Below the pieces are notes generated by a model, which saw nothing but the letters and a program-made list of their open reading frames with translations, was not told where the DNA came from and did not search any database. Positions 317-34,694 of a stretch of DNA of 64,000 nt are shown piece by piece; position 1 is the stretch's first letter; every line of letters begins with the position of its first letter. Origin of the DNA: an uncultured Planctomycetales bacterium (GTDB lineage: Bacteria > Omnitrophota > Gorgyraeia > Zapsychrales > JANLHA01); contig CAYJXI010000002.1 in NCBI GenBank assembly GCA_964374105.1, positions 57,730 to 121,729 of the forward strand. Direction: 5' to 3'. Both the position numbers and the translations under genes were made by a program.

Positions 317-1183
317 ATGTCAGCTATTACCAAACGTTATGATTTTGTTTTGTTCTTTGATGTCCAGGATGGTAATCCCAATGGCGATCCCGATGCCGGC
401 AATCTTCCGCGTGTAGATGCCGAAACAGGCATGGGGCTAGTGACGGATGTCTGTTTGAAGCGCAAGGTGCGGAATTATGTCCAGATAATTAAGGAATCAA
501 AAAAGCCATTCGACATATTTGTTAAGGAAAAAGCTGTGCTTAATTCGTTGATTGACGAAGCTCATGAACAACAAAATGTGAAGAATAAGGAGAAAGGTGA
601 TAAGACTGAAGCTGCCCGTCAATGGATGTGTGTGCAATACTATGACATTCGGGCGTTTGGCGCTGTTATGAGCACAGGGAAAAATGCTGGCCAGGTCCGA
701 GGGCCAATTCAGTTGACCTTTGCCCGGTCCGTAGAACCCATTGTTACTCTTGAGCATAGTATCACGCGTATGGCTGTAGCCACGGAAGCAGAAGCGGAAA
801 AACAAAGTGGTGATAACCGGACCATGGGTCGCAAGTTTACTGTTCCTTACGGTCTTTACCGTACTCACGGCTTTGTGTCCGCGCATCTGGCAGCACAAAC
901 AGGTTTTTCTGAAGAAGATTTGGAGTTGTTCTGGGAATCTTTGCAAAGGATGTTTGATCATGATCATTCTGCGGCGCGCGGCCTTATGAGCCCCCGGGCG
1001 TTAATTATTTTCGAGCATGGTTCAGCGCTGGGAACAGCAAACGCGTCGACCCTTTTTGATCGGGTTACATTCAAGCGCTCTAGCGAAGGCCCAGCACGCA
1101 AGTTTTCTGACTATCAGATTTTGCTTGATGGTCAAGCAGTAACAGAAATGCCTAAAATAGTGAACAGTAACAGAAATGCCTAA
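317..1183 (+). CDS. cas7: Type I-C Cas7 (Csd2/DevR family) Cascade backbone subunit
   Basis: The N-terminal motif [19 protein letters not shown] is the hallmark of Csd2/Csh2/DevR Cas7. The gene is 288 aa and followed by cas4-cas1-cas2 and I-C-type repeats. Its 3' end is modified by a 28-bp tandem duplication. Confidence 0.85.
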
Positions 1184-1250
1184 AATAGTGAAAGTGTAAG
1201 TATTTGTTTATCCCCCCAACCCTACCCCACAGCAAAAGGAGGAGTTAGAA

Positions 1251-2078
1251 ATGGGGAATAAAAATCAGATAGTAGAATTTCAGGCTCAGAAAATCCGGAG
1301 GTTTTGGGACGAACAACAAGAGAAGTGGTATTTTTCGGTCATTGATGTGATACAGGCGCTGACTGATAGTACAATCCCGCGCCGTTATTGGTCAGATCTT
1401 AAACGCAAGCTGACAGCAGAGGGAAGTCAGGTGTACGAGAAAATCGTACAACTGAAATTTGTATCAAGTGATGGGAAAAAGTACCTCAGCGGTGCCGCCG
1501 ATACGGAAACCATGTTCCGGATTATCCAGTCCGTCCCTTCCCCCAAAGCGGAGCCTTTCAAATTATGGCTAGCTCGTGTCGGATACGAACGGGTTGAGGA
1601 GGCCGCTGATCCCGAATTGGCCGTTCAAAGAGCCATGCAGTATTATTTGAAGAAAGGTTATTCGGAAGAGTGGATTAACCAGCGCTTAAAAAGTATCGAG
1701 ATTCGAAAATTTTTAACGGATGAATGGCGTAAAAGGGGCGTTAAAGGGAGTGATGAATTCGCGATTCTGACCGATGATATTACGTTTGCTTGGGCAGGGA
1801 TGAAAACCAAAGATTATAAAAAATTCAAGGAACTTAAGAAAGAAAATCTTCGGGATAATATGACCAATCTGGAGCTTATCCTTAACATGCTTGCCGAAGC
1901 GACTACGACTGAAATTTCACAAGTGAAAAAACCGGAAACTTTTAAGGATAACCGAAAGGTCGCGCGTCAAGGCGGCGGGGTGGCTGGCAAAGCGCGCAAG
2001 GACATTGAACAAAAAACAGGAAGAAGCGTTATCAGTCAAGAAACTCATCTTAAAATACTGAAGGGAAGAAAACGATGA
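1251..2078 (+). CDS. DinD-like / Bro-N domain protein (phage antirepressor-like N-terminal domain)
   Basis: The N-terminal 110 aa (QKIRRFWDEQQEKWYFSVIDVIQALTDS...YWSDLKRKL...) resemble the Bro-N fold of E. coli DNA-damage-inducible protein D. There is a strong SD (aaaggagg) 8 nt upstream. The gene sits between cas7 and cas4. Confidence 0.65.
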   Translation: MGNKNQIVEFQAQKIRRFWDEQQEKWYFSVIDVIQALTDSTIPRRYWSDLKRKLTAEGSQVYEKIVQLKFVSSDGKKYLSGAADTETMFRIIQSVPSPKAEPFKLWLARVGYERVEEAADPELAVQRAMQYYLKKGYSEEWINQRLKSIEIRKFLTDEWRKRGVKGSDEFAILTDDITFAWAGMKTKDYKKFKELKKENLRDNMTNLELILNMLAEATTTEISQVKKPETFKDNRKVARQGGGVAGKARKDIEQKTGRSVISQETHLKILKGRKR

Positions 2079-2229
2079 CTACCGCTAACTAAAGTTTTCC
2101 ACGTGCGTGGGGATGCATTGTGCGCGTAGGATTAATGTACAATATTTTGGAGCGAATTGAGCTGGACACATTAGCAGGTATTTTAATTATTCCCCCTCAA
2201 CCTACCCCACAACAAAGGAGAAGTCAGAA

Positions 2230-3336
2230 ATGGGGACACAGCATCGAAATGACCCGGCTCGTAATAAAGAGAAGCCGAGTGCGGCAAAAAAAGATTTAAT
2301 TCCAAAGGAATCAAAATTTATCCTCTATGCCAGCCCGGATGGGCAAGTTAAAGTGGAAGTCTTTCTTCAGGGGGAAACGGTTTGGCTGTCTCAGCAGTTA
2401 ATGGCGGAACTGTTTCAGACAACCAAGCAGAACATAAGTTTACATATTAAGAATATCTTTGAGGAAAATGAGCTGGTCGAAAATTCAGTTGTCAAGGAAT
2501 TCTTGACAACTGCCGCCGACGGGAAAAGTTATCAAACGAAGTTTTACAACCTTGATATGATTATATCCGTTGGATACCGTATCAAGTCCAACGTTGCCAC
2601 GCAATTCCGTATCTGGGCGACGCGTGTATTGCGCGAATATATTGTTAAGGGGTTTGCTCTTGACGATGATCGCCTTAAAAGCGGTAAATCTTTACGGCAG
2701 AAATATTTTGAAGAACTTTTGGAGCGCATCCGTGATATCCGCGCTTCGGAGCGTTTGTTCTATCAGAAAATCACTGATATTTACGCTCAATGCAGCATTG
2801 ATTATGATCCTAATTCATCCGTTACTGAGAAATTTTATGCGGTCGTCCAGAATAAACTGCATTGGGCTATTCATGGGCATACAGCCGCTGAATTGATTGC
2901 CAAGCGAGCCAATGCCTCAAAGCCGTATATGGGGTTGACCACATGGACTAATGCCCTCAGGGGGAAAATTCGTAAGATGGATGTATCGGTTGCGAAAAAT
3001 TATCTGGCGGAAAAGGAACTCCGGCAGTTGAACCGTATCGTGACAATGTATTTGGACTATGCGGAAATGCAGGCAGAAAACAAAAAGGCAATGACCATGA
3101 AGGATTGGGTGGCGAAGCTGGATTCTTTTTTAAGATTTAATGAAAAAGAAATACTCTCTAATCCGGGCAAAATATCATCTGAAGTTGCAAAAGAATTAGC
3201 CGAAAAGGAATTTGCGAAATACGAAAATCAAATTAGAACGTTTGAGGCCTCACAGCCCTCAACTGATTTCGATAAGCTTGTCAACCAAACTGAACAATTG
3301 AAAAGAAAAAGAATCAAACGGAATAAAGGACTATGA
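2230..3336 (+). CDS. RhuM-family protein (virulence protein RhuM family)
   Basis: The central region ETVWLSQQLMAELFQTTKQNISLHIKNIFEENEL...YNLDMIISVGYRIKSNVATQFRIWATRVLREYIVKGFALDDDRL is highly characteristic of RhuM-family proteins. The stop codon overlaps the cas4 ATG (ATGA). Confidence 0.75.
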   Translation: MGTQHRNDPARNKEKPSAAKKDLIPKESKFILYASPDGQVKVEVFLQGETVWLSQQLMAELFQTTKQNISLHIKNIFEENELVENSVVKEFLTTAADGKSYQTKFYNLDMIISVGYRIKSNVATQFRIWATRVLREYIVKGFALDDDRLKSGKSLRQKYFEELLERIRDIRASERLFYQKITDIYAQCSIDYDPNSSVTEKFYAVVQNKLHWAIHGHTAAELIAKRANASKPYMGLTTWTNALRGKIRKMDVSVAKNYLAEKELRQLNRIVTMYLDYAEMQAENKKAMTMKDWVAKLDSFLRFNEKEILSNPGKISSEVAKELAEKEFAKYENQIRTFEASQPSTDFDKLVNQTEQLKRKRIKRNKGL

Positions 3337-4001
3337 ACGAGACTGTGATATACAGTGAAGACAATCTTTTACCCCTATCCGCCATCCAGCACCTGTTTTT
3401 TTGCGAACGCCAGTGCGCGCTCATTCATATCGAACAGTTGTGGGATGAGAATTTGTTCACAGCGCAAGGGAGAATTATGCATGAGAAGGTGCATTCCGAG
3501 ACAGCCGAACGCCGGCGGGATATCCGGGTGGAGTATGGGATGCCGCTAAGATCGCTTAAACTGGGACTCTCCGGCAAAGCGGATGTGGTTGAGTTTCACC
3601 GTCTTGATGGCGGCCATTGGCCCCGCCAAGGACGGGGCTGGCAGCCTTTTCCGGTAGAGTTCAAACGAGGTCGACAAAAGCCCGACAACCGGGATAAAGT
3701 GCAGTTATGCGCTCAGGCGATTTGTCTGGAGGAGATGATGTCGCTTTCCGTCCCGCGAGGCGCGATTTATTATGGTAAAGAGCGGCATCGGACCGAGGTT
3801 GAATTTGACGAGTCTCTGCGGCAAGACACAGAGCAGACAGCGGCGCGGCTGCGCAAACTTATTGAATCGGGCAAAACTCCGCCGCCGGTTTATGAAGAGA
3901 AGTGTGATAGTTGTTCTTTGTTTTCTTTGTGTTTGCCTAAAACTATTGAGAAAAAAATATCGGTGCTGCAGTATCTTTCCCAAATGATCGAGGAATTATG
4001 A
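3333..4001 (+). CDS. cas4: Cas4 RecB-like nuclease with C-terminal Cys cluster
   Basis: The N-terminal LSAIQHLFFCERQCAL and the C-terminal CDSCSLFSLC four-Cys cluster are Cas4 hallmarks. The gene lies between cas7 and cas1, and its stop overlaps the cas1 start. Confidence 0.85.
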   Translation: MNETVIYSEDNLLPLSAIQHLFFCERQCALIHIEQLWDENLFTAQGRIMHEKVHSETAERRRDIRVEYGMPLRSLKLGLSGKADVVEFHRLDGGHWPRQGRGWQPFPVEFKRGRQKPDNRDKVQLCAQAICLEEMMSLSVPRGAIYYGKERHRTEVEFDESLRQDTEQTAARLRKLIESGKTPPPVYEEKCDSCSLFSLCLPKTIEKKISVLQYLSQMIEEL

Positions 4002-5029
4002 AAAAATATTTGAACACTATTTTTGTGACGACCCAGGGGGCATATCTTTTTAAGGAAGGCGAGACGGTCGCGGTTAAAGTGGAAGATGAAGTGAAGATGC
4101 GTGTTCCTGTCCATACAATCGGTGGAATTGTGTGCTTCGGTCAGGTGAGCTGTTCGCCGCCTTTGATGGGATTTTGCGCGGAGAATAATGTGGCGGTCAG
4201 CTTTTTGACGGAAAACGGATATTTTTTAGCGAAGGTGCAGGGATACATTTCAGGGAATGTATTGCTCAGGCGCGAGCAATACAGGCGGGCGGATGACTCA
4301 AAAAGTTCAACGACCATCGCCAAGTCCATATTAATGTCAAAATTTGCTAATTGCCGGACGGTTTTACAGCGGGCCCGGCGCGATCATGCTGATAAAATAG
4401 ATGATGAAGGGTTAAAAAAAGTTTCCGCCCGGTTGAGTTGGTCTTTGAAAGAATTGGAGCGGGACATGAGCTTGGATGCCTTGCGCGGATTGGAAGGCGA
4501 CACGGCGCATTCGTATTTCAGCGCCTTTGATCATTTGATCGTAAATCAGAAAGAGGACTTTTTTTTCCGCGAACGAAGTCGGCGTCCGCCGCTGGATAAT
4601 GTGAATTGTTTATTGTCATTTTTATATACTCTCCTTATGCACGACGTTCGTTCGGCTTTGGAAAGTGTAGGGTTGGATTCGGCGGTCGGATTTTTGCATA
4701 GGGACAGATCGGGCCGGCCGGGACTGGCGTTAGATTTGATGGAAGAATTCCGCCCATTTTTGGCCGACCGGCTGGCGTTGTCTTTGGTCAACTTGGGGCA
4801 GGTTAAAAAAAATGGTTTTAAGAAAAGTGAAGCGGGAGCGGTTTTGATGGATGATGAAACGAGAAAAACTGTTTTAATCGCCTATCAAAACAGGAAACAG
4901 GAAGAGATCACCCATCCGTTTCTTGATGAAAAAATTAACGTCGGTTTATTGTTTCATGTCCAGGCGTTGTTGTTGGCGCGGTATCTGCGCGGCGATTTGG
5001 ATGGTTATCCCGCGTTTATCTGGAAATAA
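3998..5029 (+). CDS. cas1: Cas1 integrase, type I-C
   Basis: 343 aa. It has the typical Cas1 N-terminus (LNTIFVTTQGAYLFKEGETVAV) and conserved acidic/His residues (HRDRSGRPGLALDLMEEFRP). It is followed by cas2. Confidence 0.9.
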   Translation: MKKYLNTIFVTTQGAYLFKEGETVAVKVEDEVKMRVPVHTIGGIVCFGQVSCSPPLMGFCAENNVAVSFLTENGYFLAKVQGYISGNVLLRREQYRRADDSKSSTTIAKSILMSKFANCRTVLQRARRDHADKIDDEGLKKVSARLSWSLKELERDMSLDALRGLEGDTAHSYFSAFDHLIVNQKEDFFFRERSRRPPLDNVNCLLSFLYTLLMHDVRSALESVGLDSAVGFLHRDRSGRPGLALDLMEEFRPFLADRLALSLVNLGQVKKNGFKKSEAGAVLMDDETRKTVLIAYQNRKQEEITHPFLDEKINVGLLFHVQALLLARYLRGDLDGYPAFIWK

Positions 5030-5043
5030 GAGGGAGGCATAAA

Positions 5044-5334
5044 ATGTTTGTCCTTGTTTCTTATGACGTGGCAGTGAGTGAGGAGGGCGGATCGCGACGC
5101 CTGAGGAGAGTGGCCAAGGCTTGTCAGGATTGGGGGCAGCGCGTTCAGTTTTCTGTTTTTGAGTGTATTGTGGATCCGGCTCAATGGACGGTGTTAAAAG
5201 ACAGATTGATAAGCGAGATGGATCAAGCAAAAGACAGCCTGAGGTTTTATTTTTTAGGTTCCAATTGGAAGCGGCGAGTAGAGCACATAGGAGTCAATAA
5301 ATCTTTGGACCAAGAAGGACCATTAATTGTGTAA
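5044..5334 (+). CDS. cas2: Cas2 endoribonuclease
   Basis: 96 aa. MFVLVSYDV...RVQFSVFEC is the Cas2 signature. It lies directly upstream of the leader and repeat array. Confidence 0.85.
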   Translation: MFVLVSYDVAVSEEGGSRRLRRVAKACQDWGQRVQFSVFECIVDPAQWTVLKDRLISEMDQAKDSLRFYFLGSNWKRRVEHIGVNKSLDQEGPLIV

Positions 5335-5517: not shown

Positions 5518-5615
5518 GTCGCGCCCCGTGCGGGCGCGTGGATTGAAACTTTATAGATACTAATTTTTTCCGGGATCAACGGCGTCGCGCCCCGTGCGGG
5601 CGCGTGGATTGCCCC
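5518..5615 (+). CRISPR. Minimal type I-C CRISPR array: two repeats and one 34-nt spacer
   Basis: Repeat 1 (5518-5549) reads GTCGCGCCCCGTGCGGGCGCGTGGATTGAAAC, which is close to the canonical I-C repeat GTCGCGCCCCGCACGGGCGCGTGGATTGAAAC. The spacer at 5550-5583 reads tttatagatactaattttttccgggatcaacggc. Repeat 2 (5584-5615) is identical for 28 nt and then degenerates (…gattgcccc), as a terminal repeat often does. An AT-rich 183-bp leader lies between the cas2 stop and repeat 1. Confidence 0.8.
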
Positions 5616-5815: not shown

Positions 5816-6118
5816 ATGAAAAAAATAGAGGCTATTGTTCGTAAGGAAAAGTTTGCCCAAGTCTATAAGGTTTTGGAAAAATCGGGAATTGGGGGAATGA
5901 CGGTCACCGAGGCTAAAGGTTTTGGACATCATCGCAATGGCCTCAAGGAGAAAGTCAAGATTGAAATTTATGCCGATGAATTTCAAGTCGATAAGGTCGT
6001 GGATATGATTAGACAAACGGCAAAAACTGGCACAACTGGAGATGGGAAGATTGCCGTCCTTAATCTGGAAAGATTATATCGCATTAGAACAGGAGAAGAA
6101 GGGGCCGCGGCCATTTAG
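5816..6118 (+). CDS. Nitrogen regulatory protein P-II family (GlnB/GlnK-like)
   Basis: 100 aa. MKKIEAIVRKEKF...GIGGMTVTEAKGFGHHRNG...EIYADE...GTTGDGKIAV matches the P-II fold and T-loop region. It is not adjacent to amtB or glnA. Confidence 0.75.
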   Translation: MKKIEAIVRKEKFAQVYKVLEKSGIGGMTVTEAKGFGHHRNGLKEKVKIEIYADEFQVDKVVDMIRQTAKTGTTGDGKIAVLNLERLYRIRTGEEGAAAI

Positions 6119-6263
6119 AGAGAAAAAATTTAAATATTATTTTTTTAGTACTCCCCCCATTTTTGAAGACTAATCTCTCACCCTTGAAAAAGTTTTATCT
6201 GTTCATTAACGATTTCAGCCAACGGCTGGAATTTATTAGGGAATTCTTAAGAATAAGTTGCTC

Positions 6264-6291
6264 TTTACAAATTTTGAAAGTGTAATATAAT
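6264..6291 (+). promoter_or_regulatory. Sigma70-like promoter upstream of rpsU
   Basis: tttaca, a 16-nt spacer, then tataat (-10 at 6286-6291), about 70 nt upstream of the rpsU ATG. Confidence 0.4.
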
Positions 6292-6362
6292 ACACTTTGT
6301 TTCAATGAATTTAAGCAAAAAATTATATTAATTCTCGAAGGGAAAGTGGGTGAATTGAAATT

Positions 6363-6524
6363 ATGGTCGAAGTCAGAATTACAGATAAGAACGGTTTTGA
6401 AAAAGCCATGCGGATTTTTAAAAAACAGTGTCAGAAAGAAGGGTTCCTTGTCGAATTAAAAGAGAGACGATACTATACCAAACCCTCAGAAAAGAAGCGC
6501 CGTAAGAAAACTACCTCCTTTTAG
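6363..6524 (+). CDS. rpsU: 30S ribosomal protein S21 (short form, 53 aa)
   Basis: The translation MVEVRITDKNGFEKAMRIFKKQCQKEGFLVELKERRYYTKPSEKKRRKKTTSF matches the S21 pattern (..FE.ALRRFKR.C.K.G.L.E.RRR.YEKPSE.RKR...). It is absent from the supplied ORF track because it is under 60 aa. Confidence 0.75.
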   Translation: MVEVRITDKNGFEKAMRIFKKQCQKEGFLVELKERRYYTKPSEKKRRKKTTSF

Positions 6525-6603
6525 TCATTTCAACAGGGTCCTTTAAACTTTATTTTAAGACAGCGATCATTATTTATTCGCTGTGGAGCGTTAAAGACCT
6601 CCT

Positions 6604-7170
6604 ATGGCAAAAACGCTTAAGCAAGCCCTGCCTGCCCGGCAGGCAGGCCTGCCTGCCGGCAGGCAGGTTGCGATTTTAGTGGAAGATTTATATCAGGTTT
6701 TGGAGGTGTGGTATCCCCTTTTACGACTTAAGGAAGAAGGCATTGCAGTCAAGACGATCGGGACCGGAACAAAAGAAACCTATAGCAGCAAAGAAGGATA
6801 TCCGATCAAGGTGGATTCAGGCATTCAGGATGTGGATGTCAAAGATTTCGATGGTGTCATTATTCCCGGGGGATATGCCCCGGATATCCTGCGCCGTTAT
6901 GAAAGGGTCGTCAATTTTATTAAACGTCTTTATATTGATGGCCGGGTGGTAGCAGCGATTTGCCATGGGGGATGGTTGTTGGTTTCTGCTGGGATCGCCA
7001 AAGGACATAAGCTTACGTGTTTTTTTGCTATCAAGGACGACTTGATCGCTGCGGGTGGGAAATATATCGATCGCGAAGTCGTTGTTGATAAAAATTTAAT
7101 TACCTCTCGTAAACCCGAAGACTTACCTCGATTTGTTCAAGAAATCATTAAACTCATCAAAAAAGGTTAA
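6604..7170 (+). CDS. DJ-1/PfpI family protein (class I glutamine amidotransferase-like)
   Basis: VAILVED...GVIIPGGYAP...AAICHGGWLL contains the nucleophile-elbow Cys typical of DJ-1/PfpI. The first ~20 codons are encoded by two tandem palindromes, so the true start is uncertain. Confidence 0.7.
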   Translation: MAKTLKQALPARQAGLPAGRQVAILVEDLYQVLEVWYPLLRLKEEGIAVKTIGTGTKETYSSKEGYPIKVDSGIQDVDVKDFDGVIIPGGYAPDILRRYERVVNFIKRLYIDGRVVAAICHGGWLLVSAGIAKGHKLTCFFAIKDDLIAAGGKYIDREVVVDKNLITSRKPEDLPRFVQEIIKLIKKG

Positions 7171-22218: not shown

Positions 22219-22251
22219 CAGTAGGGGCGACCCGGCGGGTCGCCCCTACTT
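22219..22251 (+). terminator. Intra-operon hairpin (partial terminator) between the SBP gene and the permease genes
   Basis: agtaggggcgacccggcgggtcgcccctact forms a perfect 13-bp stem with a short T tract. Confidence 0.5.
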
Positions 22252-22262
22252 TAGGGATTATC

Positions 22263-23189
22263 ATGGAAGGTTATAAAACTCAAAGGTCTTTGTCGGCAAA
22301 GTTAAAAGATAAAACCGAAAATTTTTTTTTCATTGCCCCCGCTGTCGTTATCTTCTCAATTTTTTATGTTTATCCTTTCATCAATATCTTCCATTTATCT
22401 CTTTTTGAATGGAATGGAATCAGTCCAAGCCGAGAATTTGTCGGTTTAGATAATTTTAAAGAATTGATGTATGATAAGGTGTGGTGGTCATCCATGGGGC
22501 ATGCGGCCTATATCACCCTTATCGCGCTTACGTTTCAAAATGCCCTGGCCTTTGCCTTGGCACTTGCTTGTGACCGAGAAATCCGGCTTAAAAAATTTTA
22601 TCGAGTTGTTTTTTTTATTCCACCTGTTTTATCTGAGATCGTTATCGGGTTAATTTGGCAGTGGATCCTATATTCGGGAATTCACGATGGAGAATATATA
22701 GGATTATTAAATTATTTTCTCGATAAGGCAGGATTGCATCATTTGGCGCATAATTGGTTATCGGACCCTAAGACGGCTTTGACGTGTATTGCGGTTGTTC
22801 ACAGTTGGAAGGGATTCGGTTGGGGATTTATCATTTTATTGGCGGGATTGCAGACAATTGATCGACAATTGTATGAAGCCGCTCGCGTGGATGGAGCGGG
22901 AAGTTGGAATATATTCTTGAATGTGACTATCCCCTTGATGCTGCCGGTGATTGTCGTTGTTGTTATTTTAACAATTTTAGGATCGATGCAAGTGTTTGTT
23001 CTTATTCTCTCCATGGTAGGACAAGGTTTGGTTTACCATACTGAGGTGCCGGTGACAAGGATTCTGGCTTCCATGATGGGAACAAATCGTTTTGGTTATG
23101 CGTGTGCCCAGGGGGTAGTTTTTGGATTGATTTTGGTCGTTGTCTCTTTCACGCTCAAGCTTTTATCGAATAAAATGAAACAGGCCTAA
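22263..23189 (+). CDS. Sugar ABC transporter permease (MalF/UgpA-like)
   Basis: The EAA-loop region is EAARVDGAGSWNIFLNVTIPL. Six TM helices are predicted. Confidence 0.85.
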   Translation: MEGYKTQRSLSAKLKDKTENFFFIAPAVVIFSIFYVYPFINIFHLSLFEWNGISPSREFVGLDNFKELMYDKVWWSSMGHAAYITLIALTFQNALAFALALACDREIRLKKFYRVVFFIPPVLSEIVIGLIWQWILYSGIHDGEYIGLLNYFLDKAGLHHLAHNWLSDPKTALTCIAVVHSWKGFGWGFIILLAGLQTIDRQLYEAARVDGAGSWNIFLNVTIPLMLPVIVVVVILTILGSMQVFVLILSMVGQGLVYHTEVPVTRILASMMGTNRFGYACAQGVVFGLILVVVSFTLKLLSNKMKQA

Positions 23190-34645: not shown

Positions 34646-34683
34646 CAAGTAGGGGCACGGCATGCCGTGCCCCTACTTGTTTT
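34646..34683 (+). terminator. Rho-independent terminator after cysK
   Basis: caagtaggggcacggcatgccgtgcccctacttg forms a perfect stem and is followed by tttt. Confidence 0.7.
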
Positions 34684-34694
34684 AAGGAGATCCG

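Follow-up and report, generated by a model that had tools for sequence, protein, structure and literature searches.

Two genes embedded in a type I-C CRISPR-Cas operon of an Omnitrophota-like bacterium each carry their own copy of a near-identical leader of about 58 nt, and this pair of leaders is probably a duplicated translation-initiation region that was made within this lineage. The genes encode a DinD-like protein and a RhuM-family protein (cargo genes 1 and 2, Table 1) and lie one behind the other between cas7 and cas4 in the window, the whole 64-kb stretch of contig CAYJXI010000002.1 that was analysed. A sequence-only reading of this DNA had placed the two copies at 1211-1256 and 2191-2235 with about 85% identity, and had noted in both a strong Shine-Dalgarno (SD) sequence at an equal distance from an ATG that is followed by GGG. 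These observations are borne out, and the repeat is slightly longer than first described. Without gaps, 1211-1236 and 2191-2216 are 85% identical and 1235-1257 and 2214-2236 are 91% identical, the two blocks being separated by one 1-nt indel. Local alignment of the intergenic regions gave a score of 49, which none of 500 shuffles reached (maximum 23), and lengthened the repeat upstream to a shared GTATTT. At the other end the copies include the first four coding nucleotides and diverge directly past ATGGGGA; they stand 980 nt apart and head coding sequences that are unrelated in DNA. In both leaders 8 nt separate the end of the GGAG(G/A) core from the ATG (GGAGG before the ATG at 1251, GGAGA before the ATG at 2230), the wider AAGGAG(G) motif reading AAGGAGGAG in copy 1 and AAGGAGAAG in copy 2. 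Both open reading frames (ORFs) open with ATG GGG and belong to conserved families, and use of these sites by ribosomes is predicted. The sequence-only reading took the repeat to point to a duplicated expression signal. The duplication itself is clear from the alignment and a shared expression signal is its best reading; that the leaders work as plain translation starts is what their anatomy would suggest.

The leader is neither a generic ribosome-binding-site context nor a widespread element, but is private to this lineage. Within the window, a search with a 20-mer core at up to three mismatches found two sites, which are the two leaders, against an expectation of 0.01. There is no third copy in the 64 kb, and among the 46 ORFs of which the upstream 60 nt were inspected, none of the 44 other starts resembles the leader. 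An exact-pattern scan of 185,579 species-representative genomes gave no true match and two chance matches, one in the coding region of recG and the other upstream of a response regulator, and three pattern scans of IMG/VR gave no match. BLAST of the leader against 105 related loci recovered only contigs of the same locus and the two pattern-selected genome matches, and the full set of 127 related loci likewise holds no other copy. The sequences upstream of the DinD-like homologues at 86% (L007), 81% (L006) and 77% identity (L008/9), of the RhuM homologues at 79-73% (L010-L013 and L127) and of viral homologues at 39-67% are all unrelated to the leader, and where DinD-like or RhuM genes are embedded elsewhere, the leaders in front of them are short and of unrelated sequence. 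The leader of the DinD-like gene in a sister lineage, L015 (AATAATCCCCCCTC), is suggestive by eye as a homologue and was rejected as not significant (28/500 and 92/500 shuffles). The search in related assemblies that had been proposed for this motif, made here across related loci, representative genomes and IMG/VR, found no further copy. The concern that the leader might be a generic ribosome-binding context, which would have deprived the duplication of significance, is not upheld, as no other gene of the window and no scanned public genome carries it.

The two copies differ in how they are joined to their genes. RhuM homologues open with M-x-K-D/E-L-x-P, and in an alignment with seven homologues this motif falls on residues 20-26 of the window protein. 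The leader ATG lies 19 codons (57 nt) upstream of the homologue start, near which the window gene has no in-frame ATG, GTG or TTG, its frame being open as far as the leader ATG. Codons 1-19 (2230-2286) form a lineage-private N-terminal extension (MGTQHRNDPARNKEKPSAA), and residues 1-24 lie outside all profiles and homologues. An extension of this kind, in a gene that lacks the homologue start codon, indicates that copy 2, including its ATGGGGA, was grafted upstream of the original start of RhuM. The start codon of the DinD-like gene is in the same position as in its homologues (MGNKNQIV versus MEDKKQIV or MEESKQVV). The suggestion that the genes brought their own 5' untranslated regions (UTRs) along is therefore not supported, in view both of the unrelated sequences upstream of the homologues and of the placement of the RhuM copy 19 codons ahead of the homologue start. 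The SD and spacer of copy 1 resemble those of the closest homologue, L007, at a score met by 3 of 1000 shuffles (123 of 1000 for copy 2), which hints that copy 1 may be the original. Downstream, the N-terminus of Cas4 is longer by five residues (MNETV), and ATA now stands in place of the relatives' start methionine (3333-3350). Because this new N-terminus overlaps the RhuM stop, the junctions must have been remodelled for expression.

Other origins were considered for the sequence around copy 2 and rejected. Unequal crossing-over between two alleles finds no trace in the spacer (2075-2190), which has no similarity to the 5' end of cas4 or the 3' end of cas7. As for stubs of donor genes, a short ORF (MTTAN*) after the DinD stop is not significantly similar to the start of the I-E cas1 of L007 (835/1000 shuffles), and the RhuM extension is not significantly similar to the 5' UTR of L127 (282/1000 shuffles).

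According to the reading preferred here, copy 1, which stands before the DinD-like gene, would most likely have been copied to a position before RhuM when RhuM was added to or fixed in the slot. Its joining 57 nt upstream of the homologue start would have given RhuM a new start codon and a 19-residue extension, and cas4 would have been re-coupled to RhuM through the new ATGA stop/start overlap. Each copy may then serve as an independent ribosome entry inside a long polycistronic cas transcript. The make-up of the leader would suit this role, consisting of an AT-rich head, a 26-nt C-rich, G-poor and hence presumably weakly structured tract, a strong SD, an 8-nt spacer, which is of optimal length, and ATGGGGA. 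The native cas genes at this locus rely on short gaps or overlaps. Ordinary SD regions and coupled genes share with this locus an AAGGAG(G) 8 nt before the ATG, a G-poor tract and the ATGA overlap; what differs here is that the same 58-nt region is used twice and that one copy makes a new N-terminus.

Alternatively, the genes may have come, singly or as a block, with their leader from a lineage-private donor, such as an R-M or other defence operon of this organism that had both genes behind one signal, in which case the duplication would predate the insertion. DinD-like, RhuM and DUF1016 genes do co-occur in type I restriction-modification (R-M) operons (PMC9881135, PMC3710099), the phage-defence candidate (PDC) families of PADLOC were drawn up from genes found inside systems of the BREX, DISARM and type I R-M types (bioRxiv 10.1101/2024.01.29.577857), and the search of the source genome spans 64 kb. 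However, no such donor occurs in the scanned collections, the RhuM copy is joined upstream of the homologue start rather than at it, and the nearest DinD-like homologues already lie inside cas operons with other leaders. Import of this kind is thus rather improbable.

Several points weigh against a plain duplicated start region. Transcription of the leaders and their use by ribosomes are what we infer from the DNA, and further copies may exist elsewhere in the source genome, of which 64 kb were searched. A plain ribosome-binding site needs neither a 26-nt C-rich tract nor an AT-rich head, and retention of about 85% identity may reflect either constraint or recency. Divergence from the nearest cas7 relatives at third codon positions is about 46-50%, and the leader copies must therefore be younger than that split, or constrained. 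The likeness of copy 1 to L007 lies in the SD, which can converge, and is weak evidence. Finally, the minimum-energy fold predicted for each copy contains a UCCCC/GGGGA stem that hides part of the SD, so that regulated access of ribosomes through the fold is possible.

The last point would fit a dedicated cis-regulatory element that controls the two cargo genes together, whether an SD-sequestering hairpin or thermosensor, a C-rich tract to which a protein or small RNA binds, or an operator for the Bro-N-type domains of the two proteins. In keeping with such an element, the conserved stretch exceeds the need of a ribosome-binding site and runs into the first four coding nucleotides, the UCCCC/GGGGA stem is predicted in both copies, and C-rich, G-poor 26-nt tracts are scarce, the + strand of the window having three, among them those of both leaders. 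Both proteins also share a related N-terminal region of Bro-N type, although the similarity is faint (E = 0.004). Fold stability, however, is at the level of shuffled sequences (z = -1.5 to +0.3), two copies allow no covariation, and homologous cargo genes elsewhere lack a comparable element. Rfam 15 gave no match at gathering score over the whole window, and within 1100-2400 only two noise matches (E about 5). A dedicated regulatory element is therefore unlikely. A more far-reaching version, in which the ~58-nt block is a co-regulatory operator through which expression of both embedded defence genes follows the state of the CRISPR-Cas operon, is quite improbable. If it were true, a trans factor or temperature could, for example, mask and unmask the C-rich tract, or the Bro-N-type domains of the proteins themselves could bind it, and the block would have been duplicated because selection favours the same control for each captured cargo gene.

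The AT-rich head could also be read as the -10 element of an internal promoter, by which the cargo would be transcribed independently of the cas operon. Both copies open with an AT-rich TTAT motif, and a sigma-70-like match (TGGACA, 16 nt, AATTAT; 9/12) lies at 2163-2190, at the head of copy 2. Yet the -35 element of this match is outside the repeat and copy 1 has no equivalent, and the scan returned 14 sites against 9.4 by chance, with a sigma-70 consensus that may not be that of Omnitrophota. Such a promoter is very unlikely. Terminator-like sites are absent from the + strand of the 2079-2177 spacer, and between cas7 and cas4 none was found above chance, the chance-level matches lying inside RhuM only.

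The duplicated start region preferred here lies in a slot whose content varies among relatives. In Cas7 relatives at 89-91% identity (L020/L021 and L104) the slot is empty, with cas4 6 nt past cas7, and in those at 92% (L014-L019) it holds one DinD-like gene, 48% identical to that of the window. A DUF1016/YhcG nuclease gene occupies the slot in L105 (Cas7 87%), where it is complete, and in L102 (Cas7 91%), where the contig stops after the 5' end of the gene. A variable slot, together with relatives in which it is empty, means that the two cargo genes of the window are truly inserted, as the sequence-only reading had supposed. In a survey of JGI data, 70 type I-C loci (within L022-L101) contain both cas7 and cas4; the gap between the two genes is less than 100 nt in 45 of them and at least 300 nt in 21. 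The 21 occupied slots include eight with DinD-like genes and one with a RhuM gene, one more RhuM being found in a locus without cas4. Other cargo consists of 23S_rRNA_IVP-like four-helix proteins (L044, L051, L075, L085/86, L089), a ParE toxin-antitoxin pair (L030/31), a DUF559 protein (L041) and an IS200-like Y1 transposase (L028).

The status of this slot as a cargo hotspot, with at least 300 nt between cas7 and cas4 in 21 of 70 loci, raises the question of whether the repeat is a recombination site for the capture of cassettes, comparable to an integron att site. Each cargo gene does have the repeat at its 5' edge, and copy 2 is where two Logan contigs, obtained from different runs, break off. 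On the other hand, the RhuM/cas4 boundary lacks a copy, inverted repeats do not flank the cargo, the locus encodes no site-specific recombinase, no related sequence occurs in 13 other occupied slots, and the edges of insertions elsewhere coincide with gene boundaries. That the repeat is a recombination or cassette site, which had been offered as one explanation of it, is thus extremely unlikely. The locus likewise lacks the marks of an integron cassette, having no inverted repeats at the edges, no boundary copy and no integrase; a single rve-type gene, an IS-like ORF, is present upstream of cas3 in the same-locus contig L001. The attC site of an integron cassette comes after the ORF and is an imperfect inverted repeat on which IntI acts. 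Integron cassettes resemble the present arrangement in being promoterless genes of one orientation with a repeat at each boundary; here, in contrast, the repeat precedes the ORF, holds a ribosome-binding site and start codon, and has neither inverted symmetry nor an integrase partner.

The Logan contigs of this locus show some variation of their own. The end of L001 (8083) and the end of L003 (4372), which derive from different sequencing runs, both correspond to window position 2224, just after AAGGAGAAGT in leader copy 2. This shared break implies a branch in the assembly graph, and hence a population variant or recombinant. Over 3.3 kb, contig L002 differs from the window at six sites, all at third codon positions and clustered within 16 nt of RhuM (2346-2361); five of the differences leave the protein unaltered, and the sixth is an E to D change. 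The cluster looks like a short recombination patch.

The surrounding genes (Table 1) are those of the 3' half of a type I-C operon, an assignment that follows from Pfam matches for Cas7, Cas4, Cas1 and Cas2 together with two repeats GTCGCGCCCCGTGCGGGCGCGTGGATTG. The upstream part, cas3-cas5d-csd1, is found ahead of cas7 in L001, which is identical to the window. The closest Cas7 homologues are 92% identical and are annotated as Omnitrophica WOR_2. The 28-bp duplication at the end of cas7 shifts the reading frame and alters the Cas7 C-terminus relative to the ...PKIVKV(S) or ...PKIVKL of relatives, and it is found in 3/3 same-locus Logan contigs. This perfect tandem repeat shows that the cas7 junction is prone to duplication.

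Table 1. Features of the cas7-cas2 region and CRISPR array, in window coordinates
Feature	Coordinates	Strand	Basis and remarks
cas7 (Csd2)	317..1183	+	Pfam Cas_Cas7, E = 1e-105; last interference gene ahead of the insertion
28-bp perfect tandem duplication, cas7 3' end	1137..1192	+	Window repeat family and cas7 ends of relatives
Leader copy 1	1200..1257	+	AT-rich head GTATTTGTTTA, C-rich, G-poor tract 1211-1236, Shine-Dalgarno AAGGAGGAG 1236-1244, spacer, ATGGGGA
Cargo gene 1, DinD-like Bro-N protein, 275 aa	1251..2078	+	Pfam Bro-N; PDC-S13; phrog_15286; homologue N-termini
Non-coding spacer, cargo gene 1 to leader copy 2	2079..2177	+	No significant similarity to cas4 5' end, cas7 3' end or relatives' junctions
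Leader copy 2	2178..2236	+	GTATTTTAATTAT, C-rich tract 2191-2216, AAAGGAGAAG, spacer, ATGGGGA
Cargo gene 2, RhuM-family protein, 368 aa	2230..3336	+	Pfam Virulence_RhuM, E = 8e-114; PDC-S05
cas4	3333..4001	+	Pfam Cas_Cas4; alignment with relatives; ATG overlaps RhuM stop (ATGA)
cas1	3998-5029	+	Adaptation module
cas2	5044-5334	+	Adaptation module
Minimal CRISPR array	5518..5615	+	Two I-C repeats, one 34-nt spacer

The second repeat of the minimal array (5518-5615) is degenerate at its 3' end. Control of the cargo by this mini-array was considered and rejected. Its spacer matches the window at 21/34 positions at best, at a site outside the cas locus, and L001 at no more than 19/34; there is no match at the leaders. 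Elsewhere in the window, GC-rich palindromes (GTAGGGGC...GCCCCTAC) occur at about 22225-22255 and 34660-34690, closely upstream of ORFs at 22263 and 34695, and a repeated cctgcctgcccggcaggcagg palindrome occurs at about 6626-6668, near the start of the ORF at 6604; these resemble REP or terminator elements.

Both cargo genes are candidate anti-phage genes by family match. The DinD-like protein matches PF02498 at 32 bits (cut-off 25.6) and PADLOC family PDC-S13 at E = 2e-127 over residues 1-271 of 275; it has no NCBIfam model match and no solved structure, and some of its distant homologues (~69% identity) are labelled in their sources as DNA-damage-inducible protein D or antirepressor. The RhuM protein matches PF13310 at E = 8e-114 over profile positions 1-250 of 252 and PDC-S05 at E = 1e-147. 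The DUF1016/YhcG protein of relatives is, like both cargo proteins, a full-length match to a PADLOC candidate family, the three families being PDC-S13, PDC-S05 and PDC-S02.

The nearest homologues of the DinD-like gene lie in cas operons as well. That of L006 (81%; 6001-6858) stands between cas7 and cas4 of a I-C operon, those of L008/L009 (77%; 6001-6831 in L008) precede cas1 of I-E loci, and that of L007 (86%; 252-1079), on a 1.2-kb contig, is downstream of a cas6e-like 3' end. Further DinD-like genes in cas operons are found in L015 (3564-4412), L041, L045, L049, L064, L069, L072 and L081 (6501-7313). In I-C and I-E operons alike, DinD-like genes of family PDC-S13 thus recur in the gap that separates the interference genes from cas4/cas1, the gene of L081 lying between cas4 and cas1, and their stop codon often overlaps the start of the next cas gene. 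In L008 a 3' remnant of cas6e (GLGPEKGFGCGLMLVRRV*; 5822-5878, and 196-252 in L009) follows cas5 and stands upstream of the DinD-like gene, the full cas6e being elsewhere in the I-E operon. This remnant suggests that the DinD-like gene moved between cas loci with flanking sequence. The recurrent placement of DinD-like genes between the interference and adaptation modules is a by-product of this analysis that is more interesting than the leader itself.

Comparable arrangements are known from other systems. RhuM-like proteins have long been known in R-M loci (PMC3710099), and dinD, RhuM and DUF1016 domains lie between R-M core genes (PMC9881135). The candidates PDC-S13, PDC-S05 and PDC-S02, identified by guilt by embedding, are nested between core genes of a defence operon as the cargo genes are here; their hosts, however, are BREX, DISARM and type I R-M systems, whereas here the host is a CRISPR-Cas system of type I-C (I-E in homologues), and CRISPR is not a word in the main text of the paper that defined them (Payne et al., bioRxiv 10.1101/2024.01.29.577857). 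The cargo and mini-arrays of CRISPR-cas loci described by Shmakov et al. resemble this locus in having a variable hotspot within the cas locus, empty and filled versions, and a two-repeat mini-array (bioRxiv 10.1101/2023.03.03.530964). Their cargo consists mostly of toxin-antitoxin genes, whose regulation depends on partial complementarity between a spacer and the promoter, in contrast to the present spacer, for which neither the leaders nor the locus offer a partial match. In Bacteroides fragilis type II-C systems, ORFs with a RhuM domain lie between cas1 and cas9 (PMC5704556), that is, in a cas operon beside adaptation genes as here, although the CRISPR type and position differ and no shared leader is reported there. 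This is the exception in the searchable literature, in which nothing else specific was found on DinD-like or Bro-N genes in cas operons; otherwise the recurring placement is matched there only by the general concepts of cargo and embedding.

The duplication of the leader is real but fairly ordinary, a minor event of a well-known type that is private to this lineage, and taken alone it matters little. It would show how a captured gene in a packed defence operon may gain expression by copying the start signal of its neighbour, at the price of a new N-terminus and with the next gene, cas4, re-coupled. Of wider significance is that the DinD-like Bro-N, RhuM and DUF1016 families, known from type I R-M operons, recur at the boundary between interference and adaptation genes in I-C and I-E operons. 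This extends the logic of guilt by embedding to CRISPR-Cas systems and marks out the cas7/cas4 junction as a cargo hotspot open to mining and to experiment.

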